A stretch of 64,000 nucleotides of DNA. Source: Candidatus Yanofskybacteria bacterium. Lineage in GTDB: Bacteria > Patescibacteriota > Minisyncoccia > 2-02-FULL-40-12 > GWA2-44-9. The DNA lies in contig DOSG01000002.1 of NCBI GenBank assembly GCA_003514055.1, positions 79,825 to 143,824 on the forward strand, in the 5' to 3' direction. Below, one piece after another: positions 6,859 to 36,746 of the stretch. A model generated the notes under the pieces. The model was given only the letters and a program-made list of their open reading frames with translations, searched no databases and was not told the origin of the DNA. The position numbers were made by a program, and so were the translations under genes. Positions within the stretch are counted from its first letter, which is position 1; each line of letters starts with the position of its first letter.

Positions 6859-7387
6859 GTGGAGACTATTCCTTCGAAATAGCGCTATAATGTTATTAAT
6901 GAAGGATAAAAGAACCTATGCCGATCGTCGCGAGGAATTGATAAAAGCGGTCGCCAAAAGGCGACGCAAAGTCAAAAGTCTAGCGATAGAATATAAGGGT
7001 GGCAAATGCCAAGTTTGTGGATATTGTAAGTATCAAGGAGCTCTTGATATGCACCACATATCTGATAAGCAATTTGGCATCGGAGATAAAGGATATACGA
7101 GATCTTGGGAAAAGATTAAACAAGAACTTGATAAATGTATCCTTGTCTGCGCAAATTGTCATCGTGAGATAGAAGGCGGCATAACGCAGCTTTCCGATCG
7201 AAAGACGGATTGAAACTTTTCGGGATAACGGTGAAGCCCTAGTCCGCCGACTGGTGGATGGGTAATACCGTGGGAACCTCGTAAATTTTACGAGGGCGCC
7301 GTAGAGACTAGATACCGAAACGCCTAAATCGTAAGGTAAGATAGGGCGAAGATATAGTCCACCCCGTGTCGTAAGACATGGATTACG
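6859..7387 (+). mobile_element. Group I self-splicing intron (approximate boundaries) with an ORF in its 5' part
   Basis: Conserved core elements in the expected order: R-like gtagagactaga (~7296-7307), S-like aagatatagtcc (~7341-7352). P8-like hairpin cgccta...tagggcg between them. P9-like GNRA hairpin ccgtgtc-gtaa-gacatgg, then G before the 3' exon. Confidence 0.6.
6890..7213 (+). CDS. HNH homing endonuclease (intron-encoded)
   Basis: CQVCGYC...DMHHISDK...N...VCANCH pattern (CxxC...HH...N...CxxCH); 107 aa; lies entirely inside the intron. Confidence 0.75.
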   Translation: MLLMKDKRTYADRREELIKAVAKRRRKVKSLAIEYKGGKCQVCGYCKYQGALDMHHISDKQFGIGDKGYTRSWEKIKQELDKCILVCANCHREIEGGITQLSDRKTD

Positions 7388-9011: not shown

Positions 9012-9109
9012 TTCATTAAATTAGGGGTTGATTACATTAACGCTTAAGTTTGGAATCAATTCAAGTCTGTCATAATGGCTAATTTAGGTGGGATAAGCCT
9101 GGAGCAACT

Positions 9110-9245
9110 TTCCTAATATCCTTTATTTAAGCCATTTTTATAATGGTTTGATTCTCGACTTTTCCCAGCGGGTGATTTTCCGAAAAGTCTGATTTATGGC
9201 TAAAAAGTTCTGACCGGCTTTCCAAATATCCTTTATTTAAGCCAT
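9110..9245. repeat. Two ~32-bp direct repeats (tttccYaatatcctttatttaagccattDtt) about 100 bp apart, just upstream of the recombinase gene
   Basis: repeats read at ~9110-9142 and ~9213-9245. Confidence 0.5.
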
Positions 9246-9350
9246 TATTCTAGTAATTAATTTTAGACTTTTTATCTAAGACATTTTTATAACTTTTTCT
9301 TACTATTCTTATTTGTGTAAGCATAACCTTACGGGGCTATGCGATTATGT

Positions 9351-9749
9351 TTATAGGGGCTGTGAATTTTTATTTACACGTCTATCAACTACGCCGGTCT
9401 TATCCACAAATACCAGTGGTCTATATACGCAGACTGATCCATTTGTTGCTCTCTGGCTTTCTAGAAACCCCTTCTTAACGATTTTCTTTATGTTATTCAA
9501 GATGGTAATCCTGCTATTTTTTGAATTTAGGCCGATATCTTTTGCGATAGTATTGTGACTTACTCTGCACTGCCCCTTATTAAAAGTTCTCATAAGTATA
9601 GTTGCGTAGACTCTCATCTCTGAGTTTGTGAGTCCGCTACCCTTTATGATTTGATTAGGGACCATTGTAAACCCAAGCTCCTCCCATTTTTTAAGGCCTA
9701 ACCTTGATATTAGTTTTTGCAGAGCTATAGTTCGTCCTATTTGTTGCAT
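9351..9749 (-). CDS. Winged-helix/HTH DNA-binding protein (Rep- or repressor-like)
   Basis: HTH-like stretch SHNTIAKDIGLNSKNSRITILNNIKKIVKKGFLE; lies next to the recombinase. Confidence 0.4.
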   Translation of the reverse strand: MQQIGRTIALQKLISRLGLKKWEELGFTMVPNQIIKGSGLTNSEMRVYATILMRTFNKGQCRVSHNTIAKDIGLNSKNSRITILNNIKKIVKKGFLESQRATNGSVCVYRPLVFVDKTGVVDRRVNKNSQPL

Positions 9750-10037
9750 GGTTTATTTGTTGCCTCTTTTTTTGCTTGATTCTTAATAAGCCAACTAAAA
9801 AGCTGACATAGTGTTCTAAGATGTTCTTCCGCTTCAAGATCGGATTCAAAATCCTTCCCATATATTTTGCGGTATAGCTCTCGCATCTTTTTAATTTGTT
9901 CTTTAGATATAATCAAAGCCGCCGGCTCATGGGGATAAACCGGCGGCTTTGGTCCCCATGAAAATAAATAACCTGATGGTTATACCACCAGGTTATTCTG
10001 TCTTAACGACGATGACTAAGTATTAAGTGAGGTACAC

Positions 10038-10802
10038 TTACTTTCGCCTTTTTTTCTCGATGGAGATGATTTTTCCGATACTGCCTGCATCTATTGAGCG
10101 CGTCAGCTTTTCGGGGAACATTTCGCAGACTAGGTTTGCGAGTTTTTTTCTCGACATGTGACGATTCCTATAGATGAAGTCGGTCATCTCGCGACTCCCT
10201 TCTCTTCTAGTCCTGACCTGGAGTAGCCTGCTTTCTTCCCCAGATCTTTCTCCAGCGATGCGTTTCCAATTCTTGCTTATAAAGTCGATCAGATCCCGCT
10301 TGGTTGCATCTTTGTGAACCCCGATTGCGATAGGATACTCATCGCCGCGATTAACCACTTCTTTTAGTAAGGCCATGGGGCTGTTCCCGTTATCTGGGTC
10401 AAACCCACCGTCGTAAGTTGATAGATCTTCAGCTAGGTTAAAAATCTCAATAACCCCATAATCAAAATCTGGTTTTAGGTGGACAAATCTCTCTATGTCA
10501 TTATAGAAAATATATACCTTAGACAGGAACACAACGGCCCAATGTTTTATTGGAAACCCTGAGATCAGGTTCTCTATATCTCGGTTCAACTCTCTGTATA
10601 AGTCCCCGGACCCAAAATTAATCGGGAATGTTTGCTGGTTTATCTCTGGTAGTTCTTTATCTGAAATTGAAATCCCACTTGGAAGAATCCCATATTTTAC
10701 CCTAAGCTCTCTAGCGGTTTTTTGGAACGAGTCAGTTCTTAAGAAATCTCTAAAGGTATTAATAACCTTTTTGTTTGATTTATTTTTCCCCATGATTATC
10801 AC
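10038..10802 (-). CDS. Hypothetical protein (254 aa)
   Basis: long ORF with no recognisable motif. Confidence 0.45.
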   Translation of the reverse strand: MIIMGKNKSNKKVINTFRDFLRTDSFQKTARELRVKYGILPSGISISDKELPEINQQTFPINFGSGDLYRELNRDIENLISGFPIKHWAVVFLSKVYIFYNDIERFVHLKPDFDYGVIEIFNLAEDLSTYDGGFDPDNGNSPMALLKEVVNRGDEYPIAIGVHKDATKRDLIDFISKNWKRIAGERSGEESRLLQVRTRREGSREMTDFIYRNRHMSRKKLANLVCEMFPEKLTRSIDAGSIGKIISIEKKRRK

Positions 10803-11076
10803 AACCGTAGCGATTTTTAGTCAATTTTTCAAGTAGAGCAAGACCTTTTAATCATTGAGTGTTTGTGGTAAATTTAGCGTAACAATTCAGCCTAAACCAA
10901 TCGGGGCAACCTGATTAGCATGGCATCAAATACCGACGAAGATACTGAACCCATCGTTCAGGCTCCTTCGTCGGTCCATACCCGAAAGGGTGTGGGAGAG
11001 TGAAAGCTCTCGGCCTAGCGGTGGGTTTAGTGTTATACAAAACCCTGAGTCCCCATTAGCCGAGGCAAAATATACC

Positions 11077-11547
11077 ATGGGGACGAATCTCAAACGAATC
11101 ACGGTGAGCCTATTGCTAGTTGTTGGTGTGGTTGTACTTATCTCGGCATTGTCCTCTGGTGAACCAGGGAAGGATGTGGAAACAGTTGCCGCGTTTGATG
11201 TCCCAATGCTTGTTGGCAAGGACCTCTCCGGACTTGTAGCCGAATTGGGCATACCAGATAATAACAGCGAGCCGAATATGCTCCAAATAGAAAATGGGAC
11301 AAAAACATGGGAAAAAAGCTGGGAACGGGGCGACTATTTTCTTATGGCAACTTACGATGTAAAAACTAGAAACGTTATAGACTTGTTTATAGGTGCTGAA
11401 ACCGACGCCGGGTTTGTTCAGTTCCGGGATACAAAAAATATCTTGAAGGTAGGTGGACTATCCTCGAGTGCTACTGGTTACTCGGTCGAATTTGTAAAAG
11501 CAAGAAATACTCCGGGTTATACAGGTGCTGTTATTAAGGAGAGGTAA
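11077..11547 (+). CDS. Hypothetical membrane-anchored/secreted protein
   Basis: internal ATG followed by a hydrophobic segment (ITVSLLLVVGVVVLISAL). Confidence 0.45.
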   Translation: MGTNLKRITVSLLLVVGVVVLISALSSGEPGKDVETVAAFDVPMLVGKDLSGLVAELGIPDNNSEPNMLQIENGTKTWEKSWERGDYFLMATYDVKTRNVIDLFIGAETDAGFVQFRDTKNILKVGGLSSSATGYSVEFVKARNTPGYTGAVIKER

Positions 11548-11655
11548 ATAATGGGAGGATATCCCGACAAGGTTCAATACGATCTTGTCCAGTATCCATG
11601 TTGATTTTATTGTCTATTTCTGCGAGGATGTCTTCATCTAAATAATTTCAGCAAT

Positions 11656-12795
11656 ATGACGAGAAAAATTAATAAAATTGAGCTTCCAAAACCAATAGAC
11701 AAGAAAGAGATTACCTTGGATTCTTTAGTGTTAGACGACGACAATCCTCGCTTTGGGAGTACCCTGAACGGCAAAAGTCAGGAAGAAATCATAGAGAAAC
11801 TTGCCAAAGAGAAAAATCTATATGAGTTAATAGAATCATTCAGACAGAATGGTTACTACGAAGCAGAACCCCTGCTAGTTATCGGAGATAAAAAAAGTCC
11901 TGGTAAGTATATCGTCATTGAGGGCAATCGACGCGTAGCAGCTTTAAAAATACTTTTTGACTCAAACCTTTTAAAAAAATTCGGCTTTTCTAGTCCAAAC
12001 AATTTAAAACTTGAGGATTCTCTTGTGGAAAATCTCACCAAACACATTCCTGTGCAGGTTTATGGTAGTCGAAAAGATCTATGGAGCTACTTGGGCTTCA
12101 GGCATATTAAGGGGCCAATGCCGTGGGATCCTTATAGTAAGGCGCTTTATATTGTTAGTTTACATAAAGCTGGTACGTCAATAGACGAGATTGTTGAGCG
12201 CATAGGAGATCAAAATGCTCTAGTCGTGAAGATGTTTAATGGCATAAAGGTACTACAACAGGCAGAGCGCAAAAACCTTATTGAACCGGAAAATATAGCA
12301 AAGTTCGCCTTTTCCCATTTGTATACCATTCTTGGATACACAAATACGCAAAAGTTTCTTGGTCTTAAAATAAAAAGTGGGACTCTCTTAAAAGACAACC
12401 CCATACATGAAAAATATATTAAAAATCTGAAGTTACTCATTGAATTTATTTATGGTGATAAGGAGGGTAAATTCAAGTCGGTTATTCGGTCACAGAATCC
12501 TGATATCCGCCAATTAGACGCAGTCTTAAGCGACCCGAAATTAATAGCTGACCTAAAGGTAAACGTGAATCAGGTCGGATCTTTGAGTAATGTCTTTGCT
12601 GCTACCGGAGAGGCAGAGCAGATAGTCCCAGACTTAATAGCTGATGCTTTGGCAAAACTTAAAAAAGCAGCTGCCAACTTTCATACATATAAAAAAGTTG
12701 ACTCTTCCACAAGATCAATGATCGATGAAATAGCTGAGCTTGCCATAGATTTAACAAACAGACTCGATGCCAAGAAAAAAGGTAAAAAAAGCTAG
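11656..12795 (+). CDS. ParB-like / DUF262-like NTPase-nuclease domain protein
   Basis: DDDNPR box followed by YIVIEGNRRVAALK, resembling ParB Box I-II and the DUF262 DGQQR motif; 379 aa; 3' end overlaps the next gene by 29 nt. Confidence 0.5.
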   Translation: MTRKINKIELPKPIDKKEITLDSLVLDDDNPRFGSTLNGKSQEEIIEKLAKEKNLYELIESFRQNGYYEAEPLLVIGDKKSPGKYIVIEGNRRVAALKILFDSNLLKKFGFSSPNNLKLEDSLVENLTKHIPVQVYGSRKDLWSYLGFRHIKGPMPWDPYSKALYIVSLHKAGTSIDEIVERIGDQNALVVKMFNGIKVLQQAERKNLIEPENIAKFAFSHLYTILGYTNTQKFLGLKIKSGTLLKDNPIHEKYIKNLKLLIEFIYGDKEGKFKSVIRSQNPDIRQLDAVLSDPKLIADLKVNVNQVGSLSNVFAATGEAEQIVPDLIADALAKLKKAAANFHTYKKVDSSTRSMIDEIAELAIDLTNRLDAKKKGKKS

Positions 12796-13747
12796 ATCTT
12801 CTGCTCCTACTTTACGCCAGCTGATATCATTACCAAACCAAGCAGACGAGTTATCAGAGTTAGCAGATTGGGTAGAAGTTTCAGCATGGATTCAATCTGA
12901 CTATCAAGTTAGTCGGGAAGAGGTACTGTCTGTTTTTTCGTTTGCATCGGATAGTAATGATGCAGAAGAAAAAGTTTCAAAGTTGTGGGACGAATTAAAA
13001 ACCCGTGCTGTAATTCTCCAAGATCATTATCCCTTTGCGTTATCTCCCGGGGAAGAGATTTTTCAATTTAAAAATAACGACCGCTACAAGGCTTATCTTT
13101 TTTGTTTACTTCTTTCGTTTGTTGGACTTACAAAAATAAACTCCAGAACATTTCCCGCTGCAAGTATTTTTGAAGAGTTATGCTCTTCTGTCGCTCAGAA
13201 ATATATTTCAAGTGAGTCAGTTCCTGCGAAAAGCTTACATTTTGGTTGGCCGCGTAATAGCTGGCCCAGAAGACAAAGATCACTATTAAAGGCCCTGCCA
13301 GAGCTTATAAGGACCCTCGGAGATGGAGAAAATCTAATTGATGGTGTCAGAAGTGGACGAAGTGCTCATACAGGAGATGCGGGTCTAGATATTGCTGCTT
13401 GGCGTCCATTCGTAGATGAGAGAAGGGGCATGTTGGTATTTTTAGGGCAGTGTGCAACTTCTAGGGACCATAATAGTTACATGAAGAAATTAGGAGACCT
13501 CGATTCATTCCTACTAGAGTGTGTTAACTTTAATTTTCCAAACACCCTAGGGTTGTTTATACCCCATATCCTGAGCGACAACGATCAATCCCACAAGGAG
13601 TACTGGGAGAGAATAAAGAGAAGGAAGAATATCCCATTTGATAGAATTAGAATTGCTCTTTATGGCGAGTCTTGGTCAAACTCTAAACTAGATACTTTTT
13701 TAAGTAGTCAACGTAAAAAATTGAAACAGGAGCACTCTCTTACTTAA
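12767..13747 (+). CDS. Hypothetical protein, putative nuclease partner (DUF1524/His-Me-finger-like, tentative)
   Basis: C-terminal IPHILSDNDQSHKEYW...N...SNSK resembles the EHIxPQ...W...N...N pattern of DUF1524; translationally coupled to the ParB-like gene. Confidence 0.35.
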   Translation: MPRKKVKKARSSAPTLRQLISLPNQADELSELADWVEVSAWIQSDYQVSREEVLSVFSFASDSNDAEEKVSKLWDELKTRAVILQDHYPFALSPGEEIFQFKNNDRYKAYLFCLLLSFVGLTKINSRTFPAASIFEELCSSVAQKYISSESVPAKSLHFGWPRNSWPRRQRSLLKALPELIRTLGDGENLIDGVRSGRSAHTGDAGLDIAAWRPFVDERRGMLVFLGQCATSRDHNSYMKKLGDLDSFLLECVNFNFPNTLGLFIPHILSDNDQSHKEYWERIKRRKNIPFDRIRIALYGESWSNSKLDTFLSSQRKKLKQEHSLT

Positions 13748-14885
13748 GAACCTTGATCGTAAAGTCGTACTCTCCAGAGTCATCGTATTTTTTGCCGAAC
13801 ATTCTAGCCTGCCGCACTTTTTTAAAAGGAGAGTAGCTTTCTTTTATTAAACTAAGTTTTTGATTGCTCCTTTTTATGCTTTTCTGGATAATTTTTCGCA
13901 AAGGGTAATTATCTTTTGTGGATTGACCTATTCTACATACTATAATCCCATCTTTACTCATTATTTTAATAAGTGACTTCCATGTGTCAGAAAGAAAATC
14001 TATATATTTTTCTTGAGATGCAATTCTGTCATCTTTGGTTATCTTGCCTCGTGATGGAAATGGCTCGAATCCTAAGAACCATAGCCTTAGCCACTGGTCT
14101 TCCTCGTAAGATGTTATTTTTAAATATGGCGGAGACATTACTACTAGCGCGGCTTTCTTACTGGTGATCTTCTTTATGTTTCTATCAATATCTCTAACAT
14201 CTCCTAAGATACAATGCCCACGAGATTTAAATTTATGCTGTTTAGAGTTTGATAGTCTGAAATTTGTCCTGTCTCGTAAAACAGAGAAGGTGTCTATATG
14301 AGGAGCCTTCATTTTATTTTTGTGCCAGAATCTAACTGAGTAGCCTGGCTTCGGGCAATACGTATGGGGCAGGTTATTGCTTAAGTAAACCTTTTTTGTT
14401 TTTTGTGTTTCCCCGTGCAAGTAGCTAAGACATAATGTTTTAATAAAAAGACCCTCCTTTGTTTGCTCTTTTTTAAGTCGGTTCCTTAACCATAAAATCT
14501 GAAGTAGGGTTTTGCTATAGTATGCATGGCGGAAAAAAAGCGGCAACCTGGAAGCTTCTTCTCTGATAGAATTCTTATCGGCCGACTCAAACTCCTTCTC
14601 TAGTTTTTCGATGTATTTTAAGCAGGTAGCCAGTTTAATGGGCCTTGTTTTTGCTTGAGTAATCGCAAACGCCACAGGGTTTATATCATTGGCTATCGCC
14701 GCTCTTCCCAGTATTCTTGCTTCCAACAAGGTGGTTCCTCTACCTGAAAAGGGGTCTATAACTAAATCTCCTGGCTTTGAATGTTTTAAGATGGCGTCTC
14801 TAGCAAATTCTGGAGGGAACATGGCAAAATAAGGGCATAGTGCATGCATTGCATCATTGTAAGTTATTGAGGATATAATTTTCAT
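13740..14885 (-). CDS. DNA methyltransferase (N6-adenine or N4-cytosine, amino-MTase)
   Basis: AdoMet motif I DLVIDPFSGRGTT near the N-terminus and catalytic motif IV SPPY (VVMSPPYL) about 210 aa downstream. Confidence 0.8.
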   Translation of the reverse strand: MKIISSITYNDAMHALCPYFAMFPPEFARDAILKHSKPGDLVIDPFSGRGTTLLEARILGRAAIANDINPVAFAITQAKTRPIKLATCLKYIEKLEKEFESADKNSIREEASRLPLFFRHAYYSKTLLQILWLRNRLKKEQTKEGLFIKTLCLSYLHGETQKTKKVYLSNNLPHTYCPKPGYSVRFWHKNKMKAPHIDTFSVLRDRTNFRLSNSKQHKFKSRGHCILGDVRDIDRNIKKITSKKAALVVMSPPYLKITSYEEDQWLRLWFLGFEPFPSRGKITKDDRIASQEKYIDFLSDTWKSLIKIMSKDGIIVCRIGQSTKDNYPLRKIIQKSIKRSNQKLSLIKESYSPFKKVRQARMFGKKYDDSGEYDFTIKVLK

Positions 14886-15147
14886 TCCTGCTTTAAATTT
14901 AGCAAATTTATGAGACCTTGGCCAGAGTGGGTTAACAACAGGTGAAATTAAAGAAATCTATTCAATTTTTTTTGTAGTAAATCCAGGTCTCCGAATTCTT
15001 CGACCCAATCAATCTGTCTGAAATCGTCCTTCAGTGCGAGCTAGTAGCGCTGTTATAATGAGAGCCAGCATTATCTGACTTTTTAGTTATAACAAGTATG
15101 GACGGTAGAGCTAACTTCTGATAACCTTATCGCATTCCATCAGAAGG

Positions 15148-15756
15148 TTGAGACCTATGCGACTAATTATCGGCACCACAAATGAGGCCAAGGTTAAGCA
15201 AATTAAAGGAGCCTTGCTGCCACTGAAATTTCAAGTTGATGGCGTCAAAGATAAGAGTGTTCTTCCTGAAGTAATAGAGGATGGTGCGACTGCTCAAGAT
15301 AACGCCAGGAAGAAAGCCGTCGCATATGCCAAGGTATTGGGCGCAACAGTTTTATCAATGGATAACGCCCTATTTATTGATGGTCTGAACGAGAAAGAGC
15401 AGCCTGGCATTAATGTCCGGAGAATAAATAGTCGAGATGACCGTTCGGATGACCAAGAATTATTGAACCACTATAGTTCCTTAATCAGAAGGCTCGGAGA
15501 AAAAGTCGGGGGGCATTGGGAGTTTGCGATATGCGTAGCGACTCCAAGCGGCGAGACTCGTGAGACAACGATCATATCGCCAAGATTGTTTGTTGCTCAG
15601 TCGAGTTCGAAGATAGTACCAGGCTATCCGCTTGAGTCGATTCAAATTGAACCAGAGAGTGGAAAGTATATCTCCGAAATGAGCCAAGACGAACAGGACG
15701 TGTTTTGGCAGAAAGCAATCGGGAAAGAACTATGCAACTTTGTCGGATCATTGTAA
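15148..15756 (+). CDS. Ham1/RdgB-like non-canonical purine NTP pyrophosphatase (tentative)
   Basis: N-terminus RLIIGTTNEAKVKQIKGAL resembles the RdgB/Ham1 start; about 200 aa. Confidence 0.5.
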   Translation: MRPMRLIIGTTNEAKVKQIKGALLPLKFQVDGVKDKSVLPEVIEDGATAQDNARKKAVAYAKVLGATVLSMDNALFIDGLNEKEQPGINVRRINSRDDRSDDQELLNHYSSLIRRLGEKVGGHWEFAICVATPSGETRETTIISPRLFVAQSSSKIVPGYPLESIQIEPESGKYISEMSQDEQDVFWQKAIGKELCNFVGSL

Positions 15757-15770
15757 TCCCAGGCCCATTC

Positions 15771-15900
15771 GCCGACTAACGTCGGCTTTTTTATTCCAAA
15801 CAGATTCTGACATCAATGCATCAACGGAGCTAGCAGCGCTGCTATACGAAAGTTGACAAATGCCACGAGGGTGGTATTTTAGACTTAGTTTGCTCACAAA
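15771..15900 (+). promoter_or_regulatory. Intergenic module A: hairpin terminator (gccgactaacgtcggc+T7), conserved element ccaaacagattctgacatcaatgcatcaacggagc, then promoter TTGACA / ATGCCAC-gagg-GTGGTAT / TATTTTAG
   Basis: a homologous module occurs at 22086-22185. Confidence 0.6.
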
Positions 15901-15909
15901 GGATAGGCA

Positions 15910-16113
15910 ATGGCCAAACTGTCCATTAACGATATAAGACGGCGGATTAAACAAGCATCAGAGACCGGGCAAGCCTCGTGCGACATCGGGATTGAAGGGG
16001 CATTTCTAGTTCTCTTTGCTGGGATGTCCTTGAATGAAAGAAAACATATATCGAAACGAAAAAGTGAGGGGCGAAGAAGGCCAAACTCAAGCTCAAAGAA
16101 AAGAGCTCGCTGA
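15910..16113 (+). CDS. Small basic protein (67 aa), hypothetical
   Basis: ORF directly downstream of the operator-bearing promoter. Confidence 0.35.
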   Translation: MAKLSINDIRRRIKQASETGQASCDIGIEGAFLVLFAGMSLNERKHISKRKSEGRRRPNSSSKKRAR

Positions 16114-16228
16114 CCGAGAACGGTCATTTTTTAATCCAAACAGATCCTGGCATTCTTTACTCAGCGGAGCACCTATAAAAAGCCAGATAATACTGGCTTT
16201 TTGGTTGGACCTAATGTGGACGTTAGAA

Positions 16229-16927
16229 CTAATCTATCCTTTTCAAGACAAGGTCGCTGAACATACCCGGTATATTTTCGATTACCCACCCTGGCATATA
16301 TTTTTCAAACATAATTTTAAAATACTCCGAGCGTTCTTTCGCCTTACCTTTCCTGCGTAATTTATCGGGTAAAAAATCCTTATCAAATAGTGAATAATAT
16401 AATTCGAACACTTCGTGAGGCAAATGTCCGCTTTTTATTTCATCTCGAGTCAATTTATTGTTGGGATTTGCCAGAATCTCTTCTATGCACCTCCCTACGT
16501 CGCTCCCATAATAAGCAGTATCTGCCGGTGATATGCCGATTGCTTTAATTGATTTCAAGGAAGCCGCGGCTTCAATAAAAGAAGAGATGGCATTCCGAAG
16601 TATCGTCTGATCTTCTGGGCTTAGCCTTATCCGGGCGTATGCATATTCTCTAGTTTTAAATAGGAAGCTGTAACTATTGCCATAGCCTTCGGAAAGTCGG
16701 AATATATACTTTAGCCCGCCAATCGTCTTTTGTAAGGTATAGCGATTGTATGGTTGCTCCTCGCGTCGGAATGCGAAGGGGTAGGTCGTTGAATGATAAA
16801 TCTTTCCTTCTTCTAACTCTGGAAGGTTTTCTAACTCCAATTCTCGTTCGCTTTCGACGACTATGGGGGAGTTCGGCTTATGCTCTATAATCTTTTTGGC
16901 TTCGTTACTATTCCATTCTTGGCTCAT
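16229..16927 (-). CDS. Hypothetical protein (232 aa)
   Basis: long ORF on the minus strand inside the cassette region. Confidence 0.5.
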   Translation of the reverse strand: MSQEWNSNEAKKIIEHKPNSPIVVESERELELENLPELEEGKIYHSTTYPFAFRREEQPYNRYTLQKTIGGLKYIFRLSEGYGNSYSFLFKTREYAYARIRLSPEDQTILRNAISSFIEAAASLKSIKAIGISPADTAYYGSDVGRCIEEILANPNNKLTRDEIKSGHLPHEVFELYYSLFDKDFLPDKLRRKGKAKERSEYFKIMFEKYMPGWVIENIPGMFSDLVLKRID

Positions 16928-17099
16928 GATAATAATTCTACTATTAAATTTATTAAATGGTAGGGACGGCTAGATTAAATATTCAGATATTCTCTCAAGT
17001 CGGGGATATGCAAAAAATTCTCTTTTTTGATCACAGTTCTAACGTCATTCACAATGCGGAGCATTTTTCAGAGAGTGGCTTAAAACACCACTTTTTGAT

Positions 17100-17221
17100 A
17101 TTGCAAATATTAGGATTTTGTGCTATAATATAGACAATGTTGCACCATCTAATCTGGATGCGTGCAGGCAGACCGTAAACCAACGATCCAGCACAGCTGG
17201 ACGGATGGAAGGAGAGCGGCT
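17100..17221 (+). promoter_or_regulatory. Promoter TTGCAAAT...TGCTATAAT plus a conserved 52-nt leader (hairpin ccagc-aca-gctgg; RBS ggaaggagag) ahead of paralogue 1
   Basis: nearly identical to 23146-23264. Confidence 0.55.
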
Positions 17222-17650
17222 ATGGCAACTATGGTGTTGCTCGACAACAATGGCGAGAAAGTACGGACTCTCGGGTCGATCATCAATCCGAACCCGGATC
17301 TGGTCATCCCGCAGGGGTGGATGCTCAGTTGGGAAAATCAGTTCATGGAGGTCACTGCGACCGATCGTCTGAAAAATGCCGTGCTTACGCACGGGAAGGC
17401 CCGCGTCCTGGTCAATGTCGTGATGCAGACGCTCGTGGTCAGAATCGAGAGCCCGAATGTGAGGGATCTCGTGGAGGCAATCGACCTCATGGTTCAGTAC
17501 GTCGGGGGCGAGGTCGCTACGTTCAGCCCCTCCGCCGCCAACAATTCGTTCGTCGGCGGCATCAAGAACGACCTCGTCTTTCTTCGAAACATGGCGGTAC
17601 GGGCCATTCGCTCGCTACGGCAGCGAACTGGCTTCAAGATCGCGCGCTAA
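17222..17650 (+). CDS. GC-rich hypothetical protein, paralogue 1 (~142 aa)
   Basis: start MATMVLLDNNGEK after the RBS; 180 nt identical to the 23218-23398 copy, then diverged; own big-stem terminator downstream. Confidence 0.6.
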   Translation: MATMVLLDNNGEKVRTLGSIINPNPDLVIPQGWMLSWENQFMEVTATDRLKNAVLTHGKARVLVNVVMQTLVVRIESPNVRDLVEAIDLMVQYVGGEVATFSPSAANNSFVGGIKNDLVFLRNMAVRAIRSLRQRTGFKIAR

Positions 17651-17855
17651 GCGCTCACACCTCGCATCGAGACAGGGGATCCCAATCCTCGTCTGGTGCG
17701 GGGTCCTTTGTTTTTATACGTATCCAAGACTAATTAAATCTCCCCGAATTCTTACTCAATCCAGCGTTCTGAATGCGTTCCGTAGGCAGAGCAAAGCTTG
17801 ACAATAGCACTAGATGGTGCTATTGTTATTTTAACCTTAAAACTAGGAGAGTGTC

Positions 17856-18059
17856 ATGCGAATAGTTGCCGATGCGTCAAAACGTACATTGAAATTAACT
17901 GCCGAAACTGATATTGACGAGGATGAATTGATAAGAGCGAACTACGTAGTGGTAAGTTCCAAAAAGTGGTACCAATTTTGGAAAAAATCACCAACCGTTA
18001 AATTGACAATGGCTGGAGATAAGAATAAATATCTTCAGGCAATAGAAATCTCTTTCTAG
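17856..18059 (+). CDS. Small hypothetical protein (67 aa)
   Basis: promoter TTGACA-ATAGCAC-N6-GTGCTAT upstream; RBS aggaga; terminator gacccacagtgtgggtc follows. Confidence 0.4.
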   Translation: MRIVADASKRTLKLTAETDIDEDELIRANYVVVSSKKWYQFWKKSPTVKLTMAGDKNKYLQAIEISF

Positions 18060-18127
18060 GTGACCCACAGTGTGGGTCTTTCTTTTGCCTCAAAACAGTC
18101 TCTAACATCAAAGCGTTCGGGGAGTTA

Positions 18128-18162
18128 ACTTGATTATATCACGGAAACGTGGTATAATTATT
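18128..18162 (+). promoter_or_regulatory. Promoter TTGATT-N17-TGgTATAAT (extended -10)
   Basis: acttgattatatcacggaaacgtggtataattat; near-duplicate at 19808-19842. Confidence 0.55.
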
Positions 18163-18197
18163 CTAGTTCTCAAAAACCCAAGAAAGGAGTCAGTATA

Positions 18198-19322
18198 ATG
18201 AGTCTGAAACTGCGTCGGAGAGATAGACTATGGGTCATAACCCAAGGCCTGCCGCACGCTGTCGTGGCGGAAGTCCTCCTCGATCCTTGGGATCAGGTGG
18301 GCGAAGTCGTTCTGTATGCAGATTCCTCCGAGCAAGTTCAGCTCGAGGTTCTGCGTCTTGCGGCCTCACATGTTCGACAGTACGTTCGACATCGGACGGC
18401 TTCGGCTTTCGGTGGCCTCATGGTTGCCGAACATCGTAATCACAACCTGACGCGAGATGATTCCGACCGTTTCATGGATTTCTCGACGATCCCGTCGGAG
18501 ATTCAGGAGATGAATCGGGAGACGCTCACAAGAGGACTTCGCGAACTCCACATCAGTGTCTTTGCTGCCGTCCATCGGCGAGCCGAAGATGCAATCAGCG
18601 CCGCCATCGAACAAGTTGGCGTCGCTGGTCTCAAGTACGAAGTGATTCCCCAAAGGATGATCTTCGATACCGAGTTGATGGTTCGTTTCACCGTCGAAGA
18701 GCCGAACAGCTTCACCTTCTGGCACAGTCAGTCCAGGCCTGGTGGCGGGTTCGATCTCTACATCGTCCCGGCTTATCATCCCGTGATGAACGGGAAAGAG
18801 TCAGTTGGAATGGTCAACGGCGCTACAGATGCTTACATTCGCGGCAACGCGGTGAGAAGCATCTACTGCCCGGAGGACGCACAAGCAACAGATCCCAGTA
18901 AGAACTTCGGTACGAGCTGGAATCACGTGAAGCATCCGTTCTACGCGACAGGTCGTTCGATGGCGGTGAAGTTGATCACCACGAAGGTTCGTTCAGCCGA
19001 AAGCATGGAGGAGCTCACTCAGCTTCTGCGTGCTGCTCTCGGTCTGGACAACAAGTACGTGGACATCAGCGGCGGTTTCAATGCTCCGCTAAAGTGCGGG
19101 TACAATCGCATCGTTGAACTCGGCATCAGATCGCCCTATCCGCAAGCCGAGTACAGGCGCGGCGGTAACATCACTCGCGGTTCCGAACAACATTGCGTAT
19201 GGTCTTATCGAGTCCTCAAGGAAGAGGGGCAACTCGAGAAGGCCTACATTCCTTCCTGGTTTATCAAAGAAGGCTGGCTGAAGATCTACGAAGGCGCTGA
19301 AGAACGCCACGGTCTCTACTGA
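18198..19322 (+). CDS. GC-rich hypothetical protein (374 aa)
   Basis: strong RBS aaaggagtcagtataATG; GC content far above the surrounding DNA; terminator 19347-19396. Confidence 0.6.
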   Translation: MSLKLRRRDRLWVITQGLPHAVVAEVLLDPWDQVGEVVLYADSSEQVQLEVLRLAASHVRQYVRHRTASAFGGLMVAEHRNHNLTRDDSDRFMDFSTIPSEIQEMNRETLTRGLRELHISVFAAVHRRAEDAISAAIEQVGVAGLKYEVIPQRMIFDTELMVRFTVEEPNSFTFWHSQSRPGGGFDLYIVPAYHPVMNGKESVGMVNGATDAYIRGNAVRSIYCPEDAQATDPSKNFGTSWNHVKHPFYATGRSMAVKLITTKVRSAESMEELTQLLRAALGLDNKYVDISGGFNAPLKCGYNRIVELGIRSPYPQAEYRRGGNITRGSEQHCVWSYRVLKEEGQLEKAYIPSWFIKEGWLKIYEGAEERHGLY

Positions 19323-19494
19323 TGAGCAAGCTCAGAAATCACCTGCCCGCGAGAGCCCGCACATTACGTGCCCGCCTCGCGGGCTCTCTCTTTTTATACA
19401 AACGCATATTTTATTAAATCATTGTGAATACTAACCCAATCCAGCGTTCTGAATGCGTTCCGTAGGCAGAGCTGACAGCATTATTGCAAGTATA

Positions 19495-19524
19495 TTGACA
19501 AATACCACGCGAGTGGTATTCTAG
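19495..19524 (+). promoter_or_regulatory. Promoter with operator: TTGACA-a-ATACCAC-gcga-GTGGTAT-TCTAG
   Basis: perfect 7-bp inverted repeat between -35 and -10. Confidence 0.6.
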
Positions 19525-19556
19525 GTCAAGTTGATCGTTCTCTGAGGTAAGAGGCG

Positions 19557-19742
19557 ATGAATAAAAAACCACGTTCACCATATCGCAAGAAGCCTTTGCC
19601 TTGTCCTTTTGGATGTCCTGGGTGTTTAGGGAGATTTTTGGGCAAAAAATGTGAATGTTCGAATACGCTGTCAACGTGTCAGCGTGCTCGCAAAGGCGAG
19701 TGCAATGAGTGCCATGCCTGTCGTTCATGTCGAGATGCATGA
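19557..19742 (+). CDS. Cysteine-rich small peptide (61 aa, 12 Cys)
   Basis: CPFGCPGCLGRFLGKKCECSNTLSTCQRARKGECNECHACRSC; RBS gaggtaagagg; terminator caaaccgccatattggcggttt follows. Confidence 0.45.
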   Translation: MNKKPRSPYRKKPLPCPFGCPGCLGRFLGKKCECSNTLSTCQRARKGECNECHACRSCRDA

Positions 19743-19856
19743 TCAAACCGCCATATTGGCGGTTTTTATTTTCTAGATAGATCCTGATTTTATCCAGCGG
19801 AGTAGCACTTGATTATATCGTGTAAATGTGGTATAATTACTATACGGGGTGGCAAA

Positions 19857-20138
19857 ATGAATAAGGATACCGGGTGGATGATTGCTTCCGGGGTGGTAGG
19901 CTTCTTGTTCTTCTTGATCGCAAATTTCACAAACTTCTTTGCTGGCGCTAGTGTTCTGGCCGGCTGTCTCCAGCTTTGTGTTAATGCTTTTGTGTTCGTT
20001 GTCTGGGCCAGAGCATTCATGCGAAGCCATGGTTTTAAGAAGTTTGTGGCTTTCTTCGGAGTGATCGTCCCCGTCGGTATGGCGGGCGTTACTCTTTGGA
20101 GAATTCTAATCCCTGCAATCACAGCATCATTTGTTTGA
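19857..20138 (+). CDS. Small membrane protein (93 aa)
   Basis: two predicted TM segments; extended -10 promoter 19808-19842; terminator gaccgagaacggtc+T7 follows. Confidence 0.5.
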   Translation: MNKDTGWMIASGVVGFLFFLIANFTNFFAGASVLAGCLQLCVNAFVFVVWARAFMRSHGFKKFVAFFGVIVPVGMAGVTLWRILIPAITASFV

Positions 20139-20265
20139 TGCTCGCTGACCGAGAACGGTCTTTTTTTGTTGCAAAATAGGTTCTGATATTGATGCGTCAG
20201 CGAAGTTGGCGGCATTGCTACGTGAAAGCCAGACAAAGCTGGCTTTTTGGTTGAATCTGGTATAG

Positions 20266-20760
20266 ATGCCGGGGCTATGCTACGATTGGATCATGAATAT
20301 CATGCGGATATTATTGTATACTCTGGTTGCACTATTATTATGCTTGGTGGTCGTCTGGCTTGCTGTTGGAATTTGGAATGTCGATAAAGTTTACGGAAAG
20401 AAGATGTTTGGCTACCAAGAAGACAAAATTTGTATTGAATGTTTCAATGGTACTCGTACGGGTACTTGTCCACAACTGATGGATGATAAGCTCACATATC
20501 CACGCGCCGCTGAATCAACAGAAATGATGGATTCGGCGCCTAATGATAGTTCGGATTATTCCGATAGCCATGTTATTAGAAATGGGTTTTGCACTCAATT
20601 TCACTCTACATTAACTACCGAAGGGCAGGATTATATTAAAAGATTCCAGACGATGCCAATACCGGAGAAGAGTTATGCTGAGTCGCTTGGGGTAGCTTGG
20701 CGATATGTGGGAGATTTTTTTGTTGCTATTATCTGTCGCACCATTGGATGTAAAATGTAG
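20266..20760 (+). CDS. Membrane-anchored Cys-containing hypothetical protein (164 aa)
   Basis: N-terminal TM segment; terminator 20808-20850. Confidence 0.45.
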   Translation: MPGLCYDWIMNIMRILLYTLVALLLCLVVVWLAVGIWNVDKVYGKKMFGYQEDKICIECFNGTRTGTCPQLMDDKLTYPRAAESTEMMDSAPNDSSDYSDSHVIRNGFCTQFHSTLTTEGQDYIKRFQTMPIPEKSYAESLGVAWRYVGDFFVAIICRTIGCKM

Positions 20761-20912
20761 TTTATTATTTAATCCAAGTAGACTCTGGCCTCATTCACCA
20801 GACCGATCAAACTAAAACACCGTATCTTATGCGGTGTTTTAGTTTGATCGGTCACTTATTCGTCGTAGAGTAGGCCACGTATGGCATACTCTTAACTCGG
20901 GAATATAGATGT

Positions 20913-22040
20913 TTATCTCAGCTCTTTGATCATCCGTAGCTTCAAGCTTACGGCCGTTCCAATTGCAGTCAGGCTGAACAGAGAAATAACGGCATACCCT
21001 ACGAATGGAATGAACCAGAGGATAATATATGCGGCCACGCCAATTAACATAGTCTTCCAGCTAACGTCGAAATTCGTTTTCTTAGTAAGCCATTTATATA
21101 GAAGTGAACCTATGAATATCGGAGTTAAGGCACAGCTAAGGATACTAAGAGCAACAATACTTATGATGCCTAAAATTCCAAGCGGAATTCCAACGACCGT
21201 AACCAGAAGTAGAATAGATATTACGGGTAAGATAATAACAGTGACGAACCCCTTTCCAAGTGCGGCCCAGGGAGACTTGAAGGCAGTCTCAACTGCTTCA
21301 ACGCTGTAGCGTCTGAACATGATACCCATTAAGAATACTAGGACAATCATCATCAAGGCCTTCATGATCAACCAGAATGATATGAAAGCTTTGATAGGTC
21401 GACTTTCGTTACGCATCGCTTTCGATTCATAAGAAACTGTGCCAAGAATTTTTGCCTCGCTATCTCTAGACATTTCATTGGGTGAACGATAGGTAAGATT
21501 GCCGCTAATAACAGCTTTCGGTCCCAATTTCAATTGAGTGGCATCGACAATAATATCTCCAGTCACGGTGGAATTTATATATACCAATGCTCCTGCTATC
21601 CGAGCCTTACCTCGAACAGAAGCCTCGACATTAATTGAATTGCCGCCAAGTAAGAGGTCGCCACCCACTTGGCCACCGGAAACCGTAATCTGATTGCCGC
21701 CTATCATGGCATCGCCGCCAACGTTGCCCTGAATAAAAACAGTATTGCCGATAATCTTAACGTCGTCGTCGACATTGGCAGTAATGACAACATTGTTGCC
21801 AGCTGAAAAGAGATCTTGGCTGACCTGGTTACTTATGAGGACGGATTGACCTGCCGCAAAGAGATCTCCGATTATTGTACCAGTGACGGATACGCTACTG
21901 CCGGCGATATACAGATCATCGCTGACTATCTCTGACGAGCCGACGGTTGGGTTGCTTCCGCTCGTAAATGTCGCACCAAGAGCTACCGCTGGCAACAAAA
22001 GTGCCATGGCAACAAAGAGTATAATTTTTTGTTTGTTCAT
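20913..22040 (-). CDS. Bactofilin-like (beta-helical repeat) protein with signal peptide and C-terminal TM domain
   Basis: repeated G-rich beta-solenoid units (IIGDLFAAGQSV.., VGGDAMIGGNQITVSGG.., GDIIVDA..) followed by four TM helices. Confidence 0.5.
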   Translation of the reverse strand: MNKQKIILFVAMALLLPAVALGATFTSGSNPTVGSSEIVSDDLYIAGSSVSVTGTIIGDLFAAGQSVLISNQVSQDLFSAGNNVVITANVDDDVKIIGNTVFIQGNVGGDAMIGGNQITVSGGQVGGDLLLGGNSINVEASVRGKARIAGALVYINSTVTGDIIVDATQLKLGPKAVISGNLTYRSPNEMSRDSEAKILGTVSYESKAMRNESRPIKAFISFWLIMKALMMIVLVFLMGIMFRRYSVEAVETAFKSPWAALGKGFVTVIILPVISILLLVTVVGIPLGILGIISIVALSILSCALTPIFIGSLLYKWLTKKTNFDVSWKTMLIGVAAYIILWFIPFVGYAVISLFSLTAIGTAVSLKLRMIKELR

Positions 22041-22152
22041 ATCTATACTATAGCAAGTATCAGCAAATTTTCCAAAAATTCTCTAGCCGACTAGCGTCGG
22101 TTTTTTATTCCCAACAGATTTTGGCCTCATTTGCTCAGCGTGATGCACTTGA

Positions 22153-22185
22153 TTGACAGAACGCGATTTCGGTGGTATTATTAAT
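22153..22185 (+). promoter_or_regulatory. Promoter TTGACA...GTGGTAT half-site...TATTATTAAT
   Basis: member of the operator-promoter family; left half-site degenerate. Confidence 0.45.
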
Positions 22186-22211
22186 ATATCCTGAAATCTG
22201 GAGGTTGTGCC

Positions 22212-22421
22212 ATGCCCGACATTCGTAAGTGTGCAGTCTGTCGCGTTGAGTTTGACTTCGACGAGTCCGGGCTAGAGGGTCCAAACGACGTCGTGGTCTG
22301 CGGCGCGGTCTGTGCCAAAAAGTCTGCCGCCAGTCGTGGAAGCGAATATGTGATCCACGACGGCGAGGGGGCGGTAGTTGAGACGAACATCACTCCTGGC
22401 ATCAAGACTCACCGCTGGTAA
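22212..22421 (+). CDS. GC-rich small Cys protein (zinc-ribbon-like CxxC...CxxxC), 69 aa
   Basis: CAVCRVEF...VVVCGAVC; RBS ggagg. Confidence 0.45.
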   Translation: MPDIRKCAVCRVEFDFDESGLEGPNDVVVCGAVCAKKSAASRGSEYVIHDGEGAVVETNITPGIKTHRW

Positions 22422-22462
22422 TCTTATCTCGAACGCCACATCAAGGAACAGGAGGAGTGCAA

Positions 22463-22678
22463 ATGAAAGTCACGGTTCTCGAGAAACCGACCGGAGGAAC
22501 GTGGTCACGATCTGAGGTTGAGGCTATCATGGGGACAATGACCGAAGTCGAACAGCTACCGAGGCTGCCGAATCGTATCGTGCTCATGAACAAGCCGCTC
22601 CGTGGTTCGATCTCGTGCGCTCTGGGCCACACCAACTACGTCGCGCGAGAAGTGGACTACCACGATCGCTGGGCCTAG
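22463..22678 (+). CDS. GC-rich small hypothetical protein (72 aa)
   Basis: RBS aggagg; terminator 22683-22740. Confidence 0.4.
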   Translation: MKVTVLEKPTGGTWSRSEVEAIMGTMTEVEQLPRLPNRIVLMNKPLRGSISCALGHTNYVAREVDYHDRWA

Positions 22679-22861
22679 CTATCGGCCCGCCTACTTGGCG
22701 ACGGAAACCCGTCGACTCAAGTCGGCGGGCTTCTTTTTTTATCCATATCCAGCTGAGTCTTTTTGGGTGTTTGCCGAGGTTGTCGATCTGAATATGTTCT
22801 GTGAGCGAAGCAAGGCATGCGGATGGTTTACGAATATCGTTTTAATTGATATGCTAAAGTT

Positions 22862-23062
22862 ATGCAAAAAATAGCTACAAAAGTATTCGTCGGGGCGTCT
22901 GTCGCTTTCGGTATTATCGGACTGTCGATGGTTGTGACAACATCTCCTGAAAGCAACGGCCCGAATGTTGTTCTGTTGAAACTTCTCTTCACTAGCGTCA
23001 TTGTCATTTTAACCTCGTTCGCTCTAAGTGTAGCCAGTAAGTATCTCAACAATAAGTCCTAA
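22862..23062 (+). CDS. Small membrane protein (66 aa)
   Basis: two hydrophobic helices; terminator aaaagtgcc-ttaaat-gggcactttttgg. Confidence 0.4.
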   Translation: MQKIATKVFVGASVAFGIIGLSMVVTTSPESNGPNVVLLKLLFTSVIVILTSFALSVASKYLNNKS

Positions 23063-23264
23063 TCTCAGTTAGGTTATAGAATTGATGCCCAAGAGGAGAG
23101 GGGCGCGTCTTTCAAAAAGTGCCTTAAATGGGCACTTTTTGGTATTGCAAACGTTACAGTTTCGTGCTATAATATAAATAATGTTGTGGCGTCTAACCTG
23201 GGCGTCGCGAACAGACCGTAAACCAACGATCCAGCACAGCTGGACGGATGGAAGGAGAGCGGCT

Positions 23265-23693
23265 ATGGCAACTATGGTGTTGCTCGACAACAATGGCGAG
23301 AAAGTACGGACTCTCGGGTCGATCATCAATCCGAACCCGGATCTGGTCATCCCGCAGGGGTGGATGCTCAGTTGGGAAAATCAGTTCATGGAGGTCCTCG
23401 CAAAGGACCACCTGAACAACGCCGTACTAACGCATGGGAAGGCTCTCGTTCTGGTCACCGCTATGATGAGTACGGTTGTGGTCCGGATTGAGAGCCCGAA
23501 CGTGAAGGACCTGGTCGAGGCGATCGACCTCGTGACCCGGTACCTTGGCGGCGAGGTTGCCACCTTCAGCCCCAACGCCGCCAACAATTCGTTCATTGGC
23601 GGTATCAAGAATGACCTCATCTTCCTTTGGGGGAAGACGACTCAGGCCATTCGCTCGCTACGGCAGCGGATTGGTTTCAAGATCGCACGCTAA
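23265..23693 (+). CDS. GC-rich hypothetical protein, paralogue 2 (~142 aa)
   Basis: same promoter, leader and first ~45 codons as 17222-17650. Confidence 0.6.
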   Translation: MATMVLLDNNGEKVRTLGSIINPNPDLVIPQGWMLSWENQFMEVLAKDHLNNAVLTHGKALVLVTAMMSTVVVRIESPNVKDLVEAIDLVTRYLGGEVATFSPNAANNSFIGGIKNDLIFLWGKTTQAIRSLRQRIGFKIAR

Positions 23694-23771
23694 GCGTGCA
23701 TGCCTCGCATCGAGACAGGGGACCTCAATCCTTGTCTAGTGCGAGGCCCTTTGTTTTTATTCGTACCGAAT

Positions 23772-25073
23772 TTATTTTAGGAACCAAGCCTTAACGACTT
23801 CTTCAGATGGTTTGTTGCGGAAGCCGGCCGATATCGATATCAGGGGCCTTACTTCTGGATCGAGAGCATCATCCCAGGCGAAATTACCGACGTTAATCCT
23901 GACGATATTCGTTGCATCTCGGACCACCGAAAAGAAGGAATTAAAAGCTTTGGCTTGCTCGTTGTAATCACTTTCAAGGGCTCTGATCGATGGGTTTTTG
24001 GAATCGAGATATTCGACTGGGCCAGCAAAAGTGCCGTCTGTATAGCTGGATGGTGCGAAGAATAGAGATACCTTTATTCCCTTCGCAATGGCCTTTCGGT
24101 TAACATCTTCGATCATTCTTCCCATCGCCGCATCGAATGATTCTTCTCCGTCTATTTTGTACTTGCCAGGTATAGCGTATATTTTTATCTCAATCACGTC
24201 GGCTTCCTTGTAATAATCATATTTTGTCCAATCTTCCTTTCCGTTTTTGCCGTCGATAAACCCGTATATATTCAGATCAGTCATTATCTCTCCTTTAAAA
24301 TTCTCCTTGACCTTAGATATGAGTTTTTTCCATAATCTATTCGCAAGCTCCTCGTGTCTAGTAAACGTTGGGTCCTGGAACATGGGCGATATGGACATAA
24401 TATCGACTCCAGCTTCCTGGTACATCTTACCCTTCTCTGATAATCGCGATTCCCATTTTTCGAAGTAATTGGAAATCCATTCTTCCGTATGTGAACTGTT
24501 GAAGTCTTCGTAATCTTTCGCGACGTCTGTGGTAATATCTCCTTTTATCCCAGACAATATGAATTTCCCGATATTCACGAAGGCCAGATTTCTTTTTATG
24601 CCAAGTTTCATCCCGCGTGAATGGGCGGCTTCTACGAGCTTCTCCAGATCCTCGGAGTTTATTGATTCGTCACGCATATCGTTCCAGAATGTTTCGTCAG
24701 CTAACTGATATGAAGTACTTTTATAGTCTGTCTCGTCGTCATATAGAGCCCTGTCAAAATCGTGTATGAATATCTCTTTGGCGCCAAGAGTTCTTACTCG
24801 TTCGAATGAACTCTCAATATTGGCCTGCGTCGTTTCGAACATTCCCATATTGTAGTTTCGGCCCCATGTGTCGTACATATTAACCGCTTTTATTTGAGGC
24901 AGAGGGGATGGAGAAACCGATACTTCATATTTGTGTACTATAAATTCTCCACGGCACCAGGGAGGAGTCGGCCATGGTCCGACAGGTGGGCAGATATTGG
25001 AAGCGAACATCGCGCCGATTAGTAGAAGAAGGATCGCCGCGATGATCGCAAGATAGATAAAAGTTTTTCTCAT
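23772..25073 (-). CDS. Membrane-anchored glycoside-hydrolase-like (TIM-barrel) protein, tentative
   Basis: N-terminal TM segment; 433 aa; overall composition only, no specific motif confirmed. Confidence 0.35.
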   Translation of the reverse strand: MRKTFIYLAIIAAILLLLIGAMFASNICPPVGPWPTPPWCRGEFIVHKYEVSVSPSPLPQIKAVNMYDTWGRNYNMGMFETTQANIESSFERVRTLGAKEIFIHDFDRALYDDETDYKSTSYQLADETFWNDMRDESINSEDLEKLVEAAHSRGMKLGIKRNLAFVNIGKFILSGIKGDITTDVAKDYEDFNSSHTEEWISNYFEKWESRLSEKGKMYQEAGVDIMSISPMFQDPTFTRHEELANRLWKKLISKVKENFKGEIMTDLNIYGFIDGKNGKEDWTKYDYYKEADVIEIKIYAIPGKYKIDGEESFDAAMGRMIEDVNRKAIAKGIKVSLFFAPSSYTDGTFAGPVEYLDSKNPSIRALESDYNEQAKAFNSFFSVVRDATNIVRINVGNFAWDDALDPEVRPLISISAGFRNKPSEEVVKAWFLK

Positions 25074-34820: not shown

Positions 34821-35207
34821 ATGTATAAAAAAATATTAATATTAGGCGTGTTTCTTGCTGCGGGGGTATTAATTCTCGTCTTTACAGCTAAAGACAATAC
34901 AAATAAGAGCTCTACGGTAAGCCCGACTGCTAGTCCATCCATCACTCCAAAATCTCAAGATACATCTTCTGGGCATACTCTTTTAGATGTTGCTAGTCAT
35001 AATGGCAGACCAAGCTGCTGGAGCGTGGTTAATGGAAAGATTTATGACCTTACTTCGTGGATTGATAAACATCCCGGTGGCTCTGATCGCATTCTTAAGA
35101 TATGTGGGACTGATGGCTCGGCCAATTTTAACAATCAGCATGGAGGTAAGCAGAAACCGGCTGATCAATTAGTTAATTTCTATGTTGGAGATTTGTCGGT
35201 GCGATAG
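34821..35207 (+). CDS. Cytochrome b5-like heme-binding domain protein, secreted/anchored
   Basis: HNGRPSCWSVVNGKIYDLTSWIDKHPGG (cyt b5 HPGG motif); signal peptide. Confidence 0.75.
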   Translation: MYKKILILGVFLAAGVLILVFTAKDNTNKSSTVSPTASPSITPKSQDTSSGHTLLDVASHNGRPSCWSVVNGKIYDLTSWIDKHPGGSDRILKICGTDGSANFNNQHGGKQKPADQLVNFYVGDLSVR

Positions 35208-35362
35208 ACCATGGAGTGCCCGATATACGTGTTGATCTTATGCAACACTAATTAAGGCTCGATTTTTCCTCTTTTCAACCCGCAAAATAGGGGAGGAACG
35301 TTCATTTCTCCTTGCTAAAACAGTAAGATTGATGGCCTAGACAGGTCTAAGCTGTTGCGATT

Positions 35363-35392
35363 GACGAAACCGCCTGTTTATGCTATAATTAA
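35363..35392 (+). promoter_or_regulatory. Promoter TTGACG-N17-TGcTATAAT ahead of a GC-rich gene
   Basis: ttgacgaaaccgcctgtttatgctataatt. Confidence 0.5.
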
Positions 35393-35474
35393 TACAACAG
35401 TGATGGTAGGGACCTTCACAACAGAATACGTTAGATTTGGTGCTTTTTTTCTTGTATCCATAAGGAGCTTGAGG

Positions 35475-36734: not shown

Positions 36735-36746
36735 GAGAGGTGACAC

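Follow-up and report, generated by a model that had tools for sequence, protein, structure and literature searches.

Two nearby genes of an uncultivated bacterium agree letter for letter over part of their leader and their first codons and then diverge abruptly, and the question is how so sharp a boundary came to lie within an open reading frame. The DNA in which they are found, which we refer to as the window, is a 64-kb stretch of chromosome from a groundwater Candidatus Yanofskybacteria (CPR), the name under which databases list exact and near-exact copies of both proteins, and carries among others a copper ATPase gene, dnaG (3676-5517) and sigA (5519-6712). Both genes lie in an island of mostly unknown genes that extends from a gene for a large serine recombinase (7383-9011, minus strand) to just before an AI-2E transporter gene (26776).

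Self-BLAST pairs the two cassettes, A and B (Table 1), at 83% identity overall, and this homology of 665 nt stops at both ends with nothing similar beyond. Only these two copies occur within the window. They have a common layout consisting of a near-consensus promoter with an extended -10 element, a leader of ~85 nt, a strong ribosome-binding site, the gene and a terminator with a stem of ~20 bp, and the folding energies of the terminators (Table 1) bear out the preliminary description, in which both genes were said to end in a long-stem terminator. Pairwise alignment and a repeat finder both give a block of 185 nt with 0 mismatches, its two copies starting 6,043 nt apart, which takes in codons 1-44 and, before them, the final 53 nt of the leader with the hairpin CCAGC-ACA-GCTGG and the ribosome-binding site. 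The earlier placing of this block at 17175-17355 and 23218-23398 was nearly right, in that it begins 6 nt earlier and that positions 17354-17355 already differ ('ac' in A, 'ct' in B). Its sharp boundary inside diverged copies, also noted at that time, stands: the alignment matches 185 of 185 nt in the block against 74-85% in the flanks (74% over the 111 nt 5' of it, 76% in the 297 nt of the gene 3' of it and 85% in the terminators). The figure of ~65% identity for the downstream proteins was too low, with 73 of the 98 residues after residue 44 (74%) being the same.

Table 1 Features of the two cassettes, of the DNA between them and of the repeated elements of the island. Positions are those of the window unless a contig is named
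Feature	Position	Strand	Description
Cassette A	17058-17722	+	complete single-gene unit, homologous to cassette B
Predicted promoter, gene A	17101-17129	+	TTGCAA, 17-nt spacer, TGnTATAAT (extended -10); consensus scan 10/12 + TG
Leader hairpin 1	17140-17167	+	5' end of transcript, outside the identical block; 12-bp stem (RNAfold)
Identical block (R), copy 1	17169-17353	+	3' part of leader and codons 1-44 of gene A; 100% identical to copy 2
Leader hairpin 2	17184-17203	+	CG-a-UCCAGC / ACA / GCUGGA-CG, bulged A; copy B at 23227-23246
Ribosome-binding site GGAAGGAG	17207-17214	+	follows leader hairpin 2
Gene A	17222-17650	+	142 aa, uncharacterised family
Intrinsic terminator, gene A	17659-17716	+	~20-bp stem, then U tract; -29.5 kcal/mol, z -4.4
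Segment between blocks	17354-23211		5,858 nt (6,043 with one block); body of gene A and ~9 small or unknown genes; GC 0.475
Cassette B	23102-23765	+	complete single-gene unit with its own promoter
Predicted promoter, gene B	23145-23173	+	same architecture as gene A promoter
Identical block (R), copy 2	23212-23396	+	includes leader hairpin 2 at 23227-23246
Gene B	23265-23693	+	142 aa; protein 82% identical to A over its full length
A-type stretch of gene B in L010	23397-23443	+	14 diagnostic sites
Intrinsic terminator, gene B	23702-23759	+	-30.3 kcal/mol, z -4.4
~28-nt motif sites	17036-17062, 17766-17792, 19446-19472, 22785-22811; L008 1750-1775; L005 ~890-915		GTTCTrA..TTC...GCrGAGCA
Reused module pairs	17698-17792/19379-19472; 18128-18160/19807-19839; 15771-15815/22086-22129; 16105-16207/20140-20253		71-88% identity

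Outside the block the longest identical run between the cassettes is 24 nt, and 185 matches in a row at 77% identity have a chance of about 1e-21. Over codons 45-142 we obtained a dS of 0.79, a dN of 0.17 and a dN/dS of 0.21, values that point to old copies maintained under purifying selection. Codons 1-44 show 0 differences, where ~13 synonymous ones would be expected even with all 44 residues held fixed (P(0) ~1e-8). We consider it very probable that the block is the tract of a recent interlocus gene conversion between old paralogs, brought about by homologous recombination.

Evidence for such a process comes from strain variants in public assemblies. A 136-kb scaffold from another sample (L010), 99.94% identical to positions 13265-33693 of the window, has a copy B whose 14 diagnostic sites from 17354 to 17392 (numbered as in A) are A-type and which turns B-type again after 17401. 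Its identical tract is thereby 232 nt long (17169-17400) and reaches 47 nt further into gene B with the 5' edge unchanged at 17169, so that the 3' boundary of identity lies at 17353 in the window and at 17400 in this strain. As the run shared at the switch is only 8 nt, too short to join, the switch is not a product of the assembler, and the same mosaic occurs as a protein (P0011) on two contigs of 136 and 176 kb. A second mosaic protein, P0002 from another data set, has upstream sequence of B type, the body of A with a single B-type residue, L61, and two private substitutions. Taken together the longer tract and this second mosaic indicate that the copies have exchanged sequence repeatedly and with varying end points, which is the signature of interlocus gene conversion. 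The recent gene conversion suggested from the sequence alone is thus upheld by zero synonymous divergence in the block against a dS of 0.79 outside it and by the 232-nt A-type tract of the sister strain.

In this process the sequence of one paralog would recently have been copied over the other, the two copies giving neither the direction nor the number of events. The tract would have come to lie at the leader hairpin and N-terminal codons as the best-conserved part of the cassette, strand exchange presumably starting there because the longest runs of identity would be found in that part. Once formed, a perfect repeat would seed further recombination events, and deletion mediated by the repeat would give presence/absence variants within the population. 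No gene for RecA or a partner recombination protein was found within the 64-kb window. For duplicated genes in general, interlocus conversion has been documented many times (reviewed in PMC3924818), and PMC12046097 describes a bacterial case.

Among bacteria, tufA/tufB of Salmonella, rRNA operons and the PE/PPE genes of Mycobacterium tuberculosis undergo conversion of this kind. With such cases our locus has in common a perfect, sharp-edged tract within diverged duplicates, homogenised synonymous sites, tract ends that vary by strain and direct repeats that are also substrates for the deletion or duplication of the DNA between them. It differs in that about a quarter of the cassette is homogenised with the rest at a dS of ~0.8, in that a conserved 5' leader forms the centre of the tract, which is not gene-wide, and in that the host is an uncultivated CPR bacterium and the evidence is that of metagenome assemblies only.

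A constant-plus-variable organisation had also been put forward for the two genes, and this we could not sustain. Each is full-length with its own promoter, ribosome-binding site and terminator, the dN/dS of 0.21 is that of purifying selection, and the boundary between residues 44 and 45 does not fall between domains; in the AlphaFold model it lies in a loop within one six-stranded sheet of a single domain. An identical 5' part, diverged 3' parts and recombination between nearby copies recall the antigenic variation of pilE/pilS and the orphan toxin modules of Rhs/CDI systems. Unlike in those systems both copies here are complete with predicted promoters of their own, the part that varies is under purifying selection, the boundary is not at a domain edge and there is no toxin/immunity or surface-protein signature. 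Promoterless partial donors of the pilE/pilS kind are likewise missing from the window, whose two copies are both full with a promoter.

The two blocks are direct repeats on either side of a segment (Table 1) in which each gene has its own promoter and terminator, as judged from a scan for open reading frames, promoters and terminators. Two contigs, one of 4.4 kb from JGI (L001) and one of 66 kb from a MAG (L006), join the sequence upstream of A through the block to the body of B with 0 other substitutions and are without the 6,043-bp unit, and a third of 1.2 kb (L004) joins the sequence upstream of B to the body of A, which is the reciprocal junction as expected from a circle or a tandem duplication. 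In an accession look-up for which P0008 was the only positive control, the lists of two segment proteins contained two sister MAGs and lacked the MAG of L006. With L006 matching the window everywhere else, it is simpler to assume a recent deletion from the two-copy state than a recent insertion. Crossovers between the direct repeats are likely to delete the 6,043-bp segment, and they may also release it as a circle or duplicate it. The junction contigs are possibly assembly shortcuts, since the 185-nt repeat is longer than the reads and the k-mers (k127 in the contig names); they share 100% of their sequence with the two-copy form. We also considered a class of 11 short contigs, the longest of 6,140 nt, as the circular segment and rejected it, because a repeat-flanked unitig assembled at k = 141 would have about this length (5858 + 2 x 140).

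The same arrangement could be read as an integrative element of 6 kb whose attL and attR are the blocks and which enters and leaves a chromosomal gene in the manner of Campbell. The element would then carry the B-type promoter with the A body, and the chromosomal gene would consist of the A-type promoter with the B body. All three forms that this calls for are present among public contigs, the cointegrate being the window, the empty site L001 and L006 and the reciprocal form L004 and P0002; the segment also has a higher GC content than the island to its left (0.40), and the 5' edge of the block is equal in both tract variants, a hint that a site-specific process could be involved. As in elements with long-repeat att sites in genes, direct repeats bracket an accessory segment, and contigs matching an empty site and a reciprocal junction exist, although misassembly could have made these, the repeat exceeding k-mer and read length. 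Against this, neither a recombinase, replication or transfer domain nor any other informative one was detected in the nine products tested from 17354-23211, and the only recombinase nearby is the large serine type 8 kb away; to our knowledge large serine recombinases neither need nor create long identical repeats. The repeat is far longer than a typical core, and its 3' edge differs between strains, which is typical of conversion and unlike a fixed core. The identity of L006 to the window over 20 kb would make the event recent, the donor would need an exact 185-nt match to the host beside 23% divergence, and the junction contigs may be assembler shortcuts. The element was not found in viral, plasmid or phage collections, where BLAST of 16900-24000 against phages and plasmids returned no match. 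An integrative element is therefore quite unlikely, and we retain interlocus gene conversion as the origin of the block.

The leader itself, which is the best-conserved nucleotide stretch in a homolog with 52% protein identity, contains two hairpins. Hairpin 1 differs in sequence between A and B with at least three pairs changed on both sides and keeps its 12-bp stem in both. Homologs at 44-56% protein identity (L005, L008 and L009) retain the architecture of hairpin 2 through compensatory changes. Both partners have changed in five of its nine pairs, and the proportion of paired cells is 94% as against 22-33% in slid controls. Coming from four distinct sequences, this covariation is suggestive. 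A more distant homolog (35% identical, L015) has two hairpins of different sequence at matching places. When the window was searched with a covariance model built on hairpin 2, the two leaders scored 58.7 bits and no further hairpin of this type, which would have suggested a regulon, came up; an Rfam scan of the leader gave no match at E values up to 1. Judged from these sequence comparisons, the earlier suggestion that the leader is a riboregulatory element is plausible, and we infer that it is a conserved cis-acting RNA, in which the 5' hairpin would stabilise the mRNA and the bulged-A hairpin just upstream of the ribosome-binding site would control translation.

A conserved leader of this kind, together with the motifs MA[ST]MVLL and LSWE that are conserved in the N-terminus of the family, is what could be expected if nucleotide-level selection on the leader RNA and an essential N-terminus had kept the block identical without any recombination. 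Constraint on protein or RNA structure would however not freeze ~27 synonymous sites. The coding stretch of the block is only ~65% nucleotide-identical in the 52%-identical homolog (the present homologs being at 65-80% identity to the 185 nt), one contig (L003) has a SNP within the block (17323 G>A), hairpin 1, a structural element too, varies freely between the cassettes by compensatory changes, and the length of the tract varies by strain. The synonymous-site test and the L010 variant contradict selection as the sole cause, which is largely refuted and in our estimate very improbable.

That a collapsed repeat produced the identity as an artefact of assembly or consensus, a caution raised at the outset and in line with public assemblies that err exactly at the block, has hardly any probability and is rejected, as the same two copies with the block are recovered in many independent assemblies by several pipelines (NCBI MAGs, JGI and ENA re-assemblies), flanks of 74-76% identity would not collapse and the L010 assembly resolves differences between the copies right beside the block. 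The two-copy arrangement with the same block was found in L011, L013 and L014 and in 25 blocks of 50-200 kb contigs, and L007 and L011-L014 are 100% identical to the window.

The assembly errors have consequences of their own for annotation. In L007, 54 nt and 34 nt are missing inside the two blocks, in L012 a 14-nt filler replaces 171 nt, and the contig L014 begins inside the repeat. The errors at L007 10044-10047 and 16035-16036 and at L012 15108-15123 are contained in the public MAG records GCA_000995875.1 and GCA_001795995.1. These deletions and the filler explain why KKR41018.1 (124 aa), KKR41028.1 (101 aa) and OGN40751.1 (71 aa) are truncated in the annotation, and a similar gap of 25 codons is seen in KKT53103.1 (117 aa). 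Misassembly of the block accounts in this way for truncated or frameshifted versions of both genes in several public MAG records.

The encoded proteins belong to a small family, for which HMMER returned 33 clusters in 1.84 billion representatives and a word-based search 4 clusters in 5.8 billion sequences. Nearly all members are of 137-171 aa and on short metagenome contigs. A further protein search with the family profile added no named relatives, scans of genome contigs and viral contigs found no relatives and a metagenome scan added only L005. Around the distant members L005, L008 and L009 only the family gene itself is in common with the window. No match was found in Pfam, PHROGs, PADLOC or NCBIfam, nor in the PDB by sequence and profile. 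An AlphaFold model built from an alignment of 32 sequences is confident (pLDDT 90.5) and shows six strands, one helix spanning residues 80-93 and a long one at the C-terminus (110-141); with Foldseek its best hits in PDB and BFVD (E 0.02-0.04, TM below 0.3) were not significant. Charge is unevenly distributed in the protein, with an acidic body (pI 4.9) and a very basic C-terminal helix (pI 12), which is compatible with nucleic-acid binding.

Hairpin 2 has features in common with known translational operators such as ribosomal-protein leaders and the coat-protein operators of MS2 and PP7 with their bulged A, being a short bulged-A stem-loop with a small loop just upstream of a ribosome-binding site that covaries across homologs and precedes this gene family only. 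One could imagine that the encoded basic protein binds the hairpin as its operator, in which case it would be an RNA-binding protein that regulates itself and whose fold is absent from solved structures, and that recombination between the blocks is a switch adding or removing a 6-kb accessory gene set in natural CPR populations; as a whole we regard this scenario as unlikely.

Several further observations concern the island and its surroundings. Its left part (7383-16927) has the look of a defence or mobile island. There the serine recombinase gene adjoins sigA and lies beside two direct repeats of 69 nt (9074-9142 and 9184-9252), 72% identical and 110 nt apart, which may serve in recombination or regulation. 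At 11656-12795 is the gene for a PD-Lambda-5_A-like protein with a ParB-like N-terminus, overlapping that of a 326-aa partner (12767-13747), and an N6/N4 DNA methylase gene (13740-14885, minus strand) is followed by one for a Ham1-type NTPase (15148-15756). A motif of ~28 nt is found just upstream of the promoters of several of the single-gene units and also upstream of family genes in unrelated contigs, with 4 matches against 0.5 expected (Table 1). It could mark the boundary of a cassette or bind a regulator common to these units. As an attC site it was rejected, recurring before promoters without an attC-like palindrome, and so were integron gene cassettes, with no tyrosine recombinase found and a promoter present in every unit. 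Promoter, terminator and spacer modules are moreover reused among otherwise unrelated small genes of the island (Table 1), which makes the region a patchwork of units that have regulatory parts in common. Two candidate relationships did not hold: the 374-aa genes at 18198 and 25504, taken as marks of a larger duplication, are unrelated, and the small proteins at 15910 and 19857 are not relatives of one another.

Between the convergent genes 20266-20760 (plus strand) and 20913-22040 (minus strand) there is a long near-perfect hairpin (20786-20877), probably a bidirectional terminator, for which Rfam gave only weak miRNA-like matches on both strands. At 15853-16126 and 19495-19765 promoter/terminator pairs on the plus strand bracket small plus-strand ORFs (15910-16113 and 19557-19742, the latter with a Cys-rich product of 61 aa), and public MAG annotations have minus-strand ORFs of 77 and 108 aa at these places which are probably mis-annotations. 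Outside the island the GC content rises from ~0.42, the chromosomal value, to 0.51-0.60 at 35000-37000, where a class-V aminotransferase gene (35355-36734) may be foreign. A pair of neighbouring Peptidase_C39-like proteins and one that is ice-binding-like (E 6e-65) are encoded at 37908-39338 and 41831-42700.

As a mechanism the conversion between the two genes is of the textbook kind and changes little; the process is a new instance of a well-known one in an unusual organism, in which the protein family and the leader motif are undescribed. The family is rare, with a confidently predicted structure that matches no known fold and a covarying leader hairpin absent from Rfam. For this uncultivated CPR lineage public assemblies alone document ongoing intragenomic recombination, in the form of a conversion tract that is polymorphic between strains and of a 6-kb deletion that is probably mediated by the repeat.
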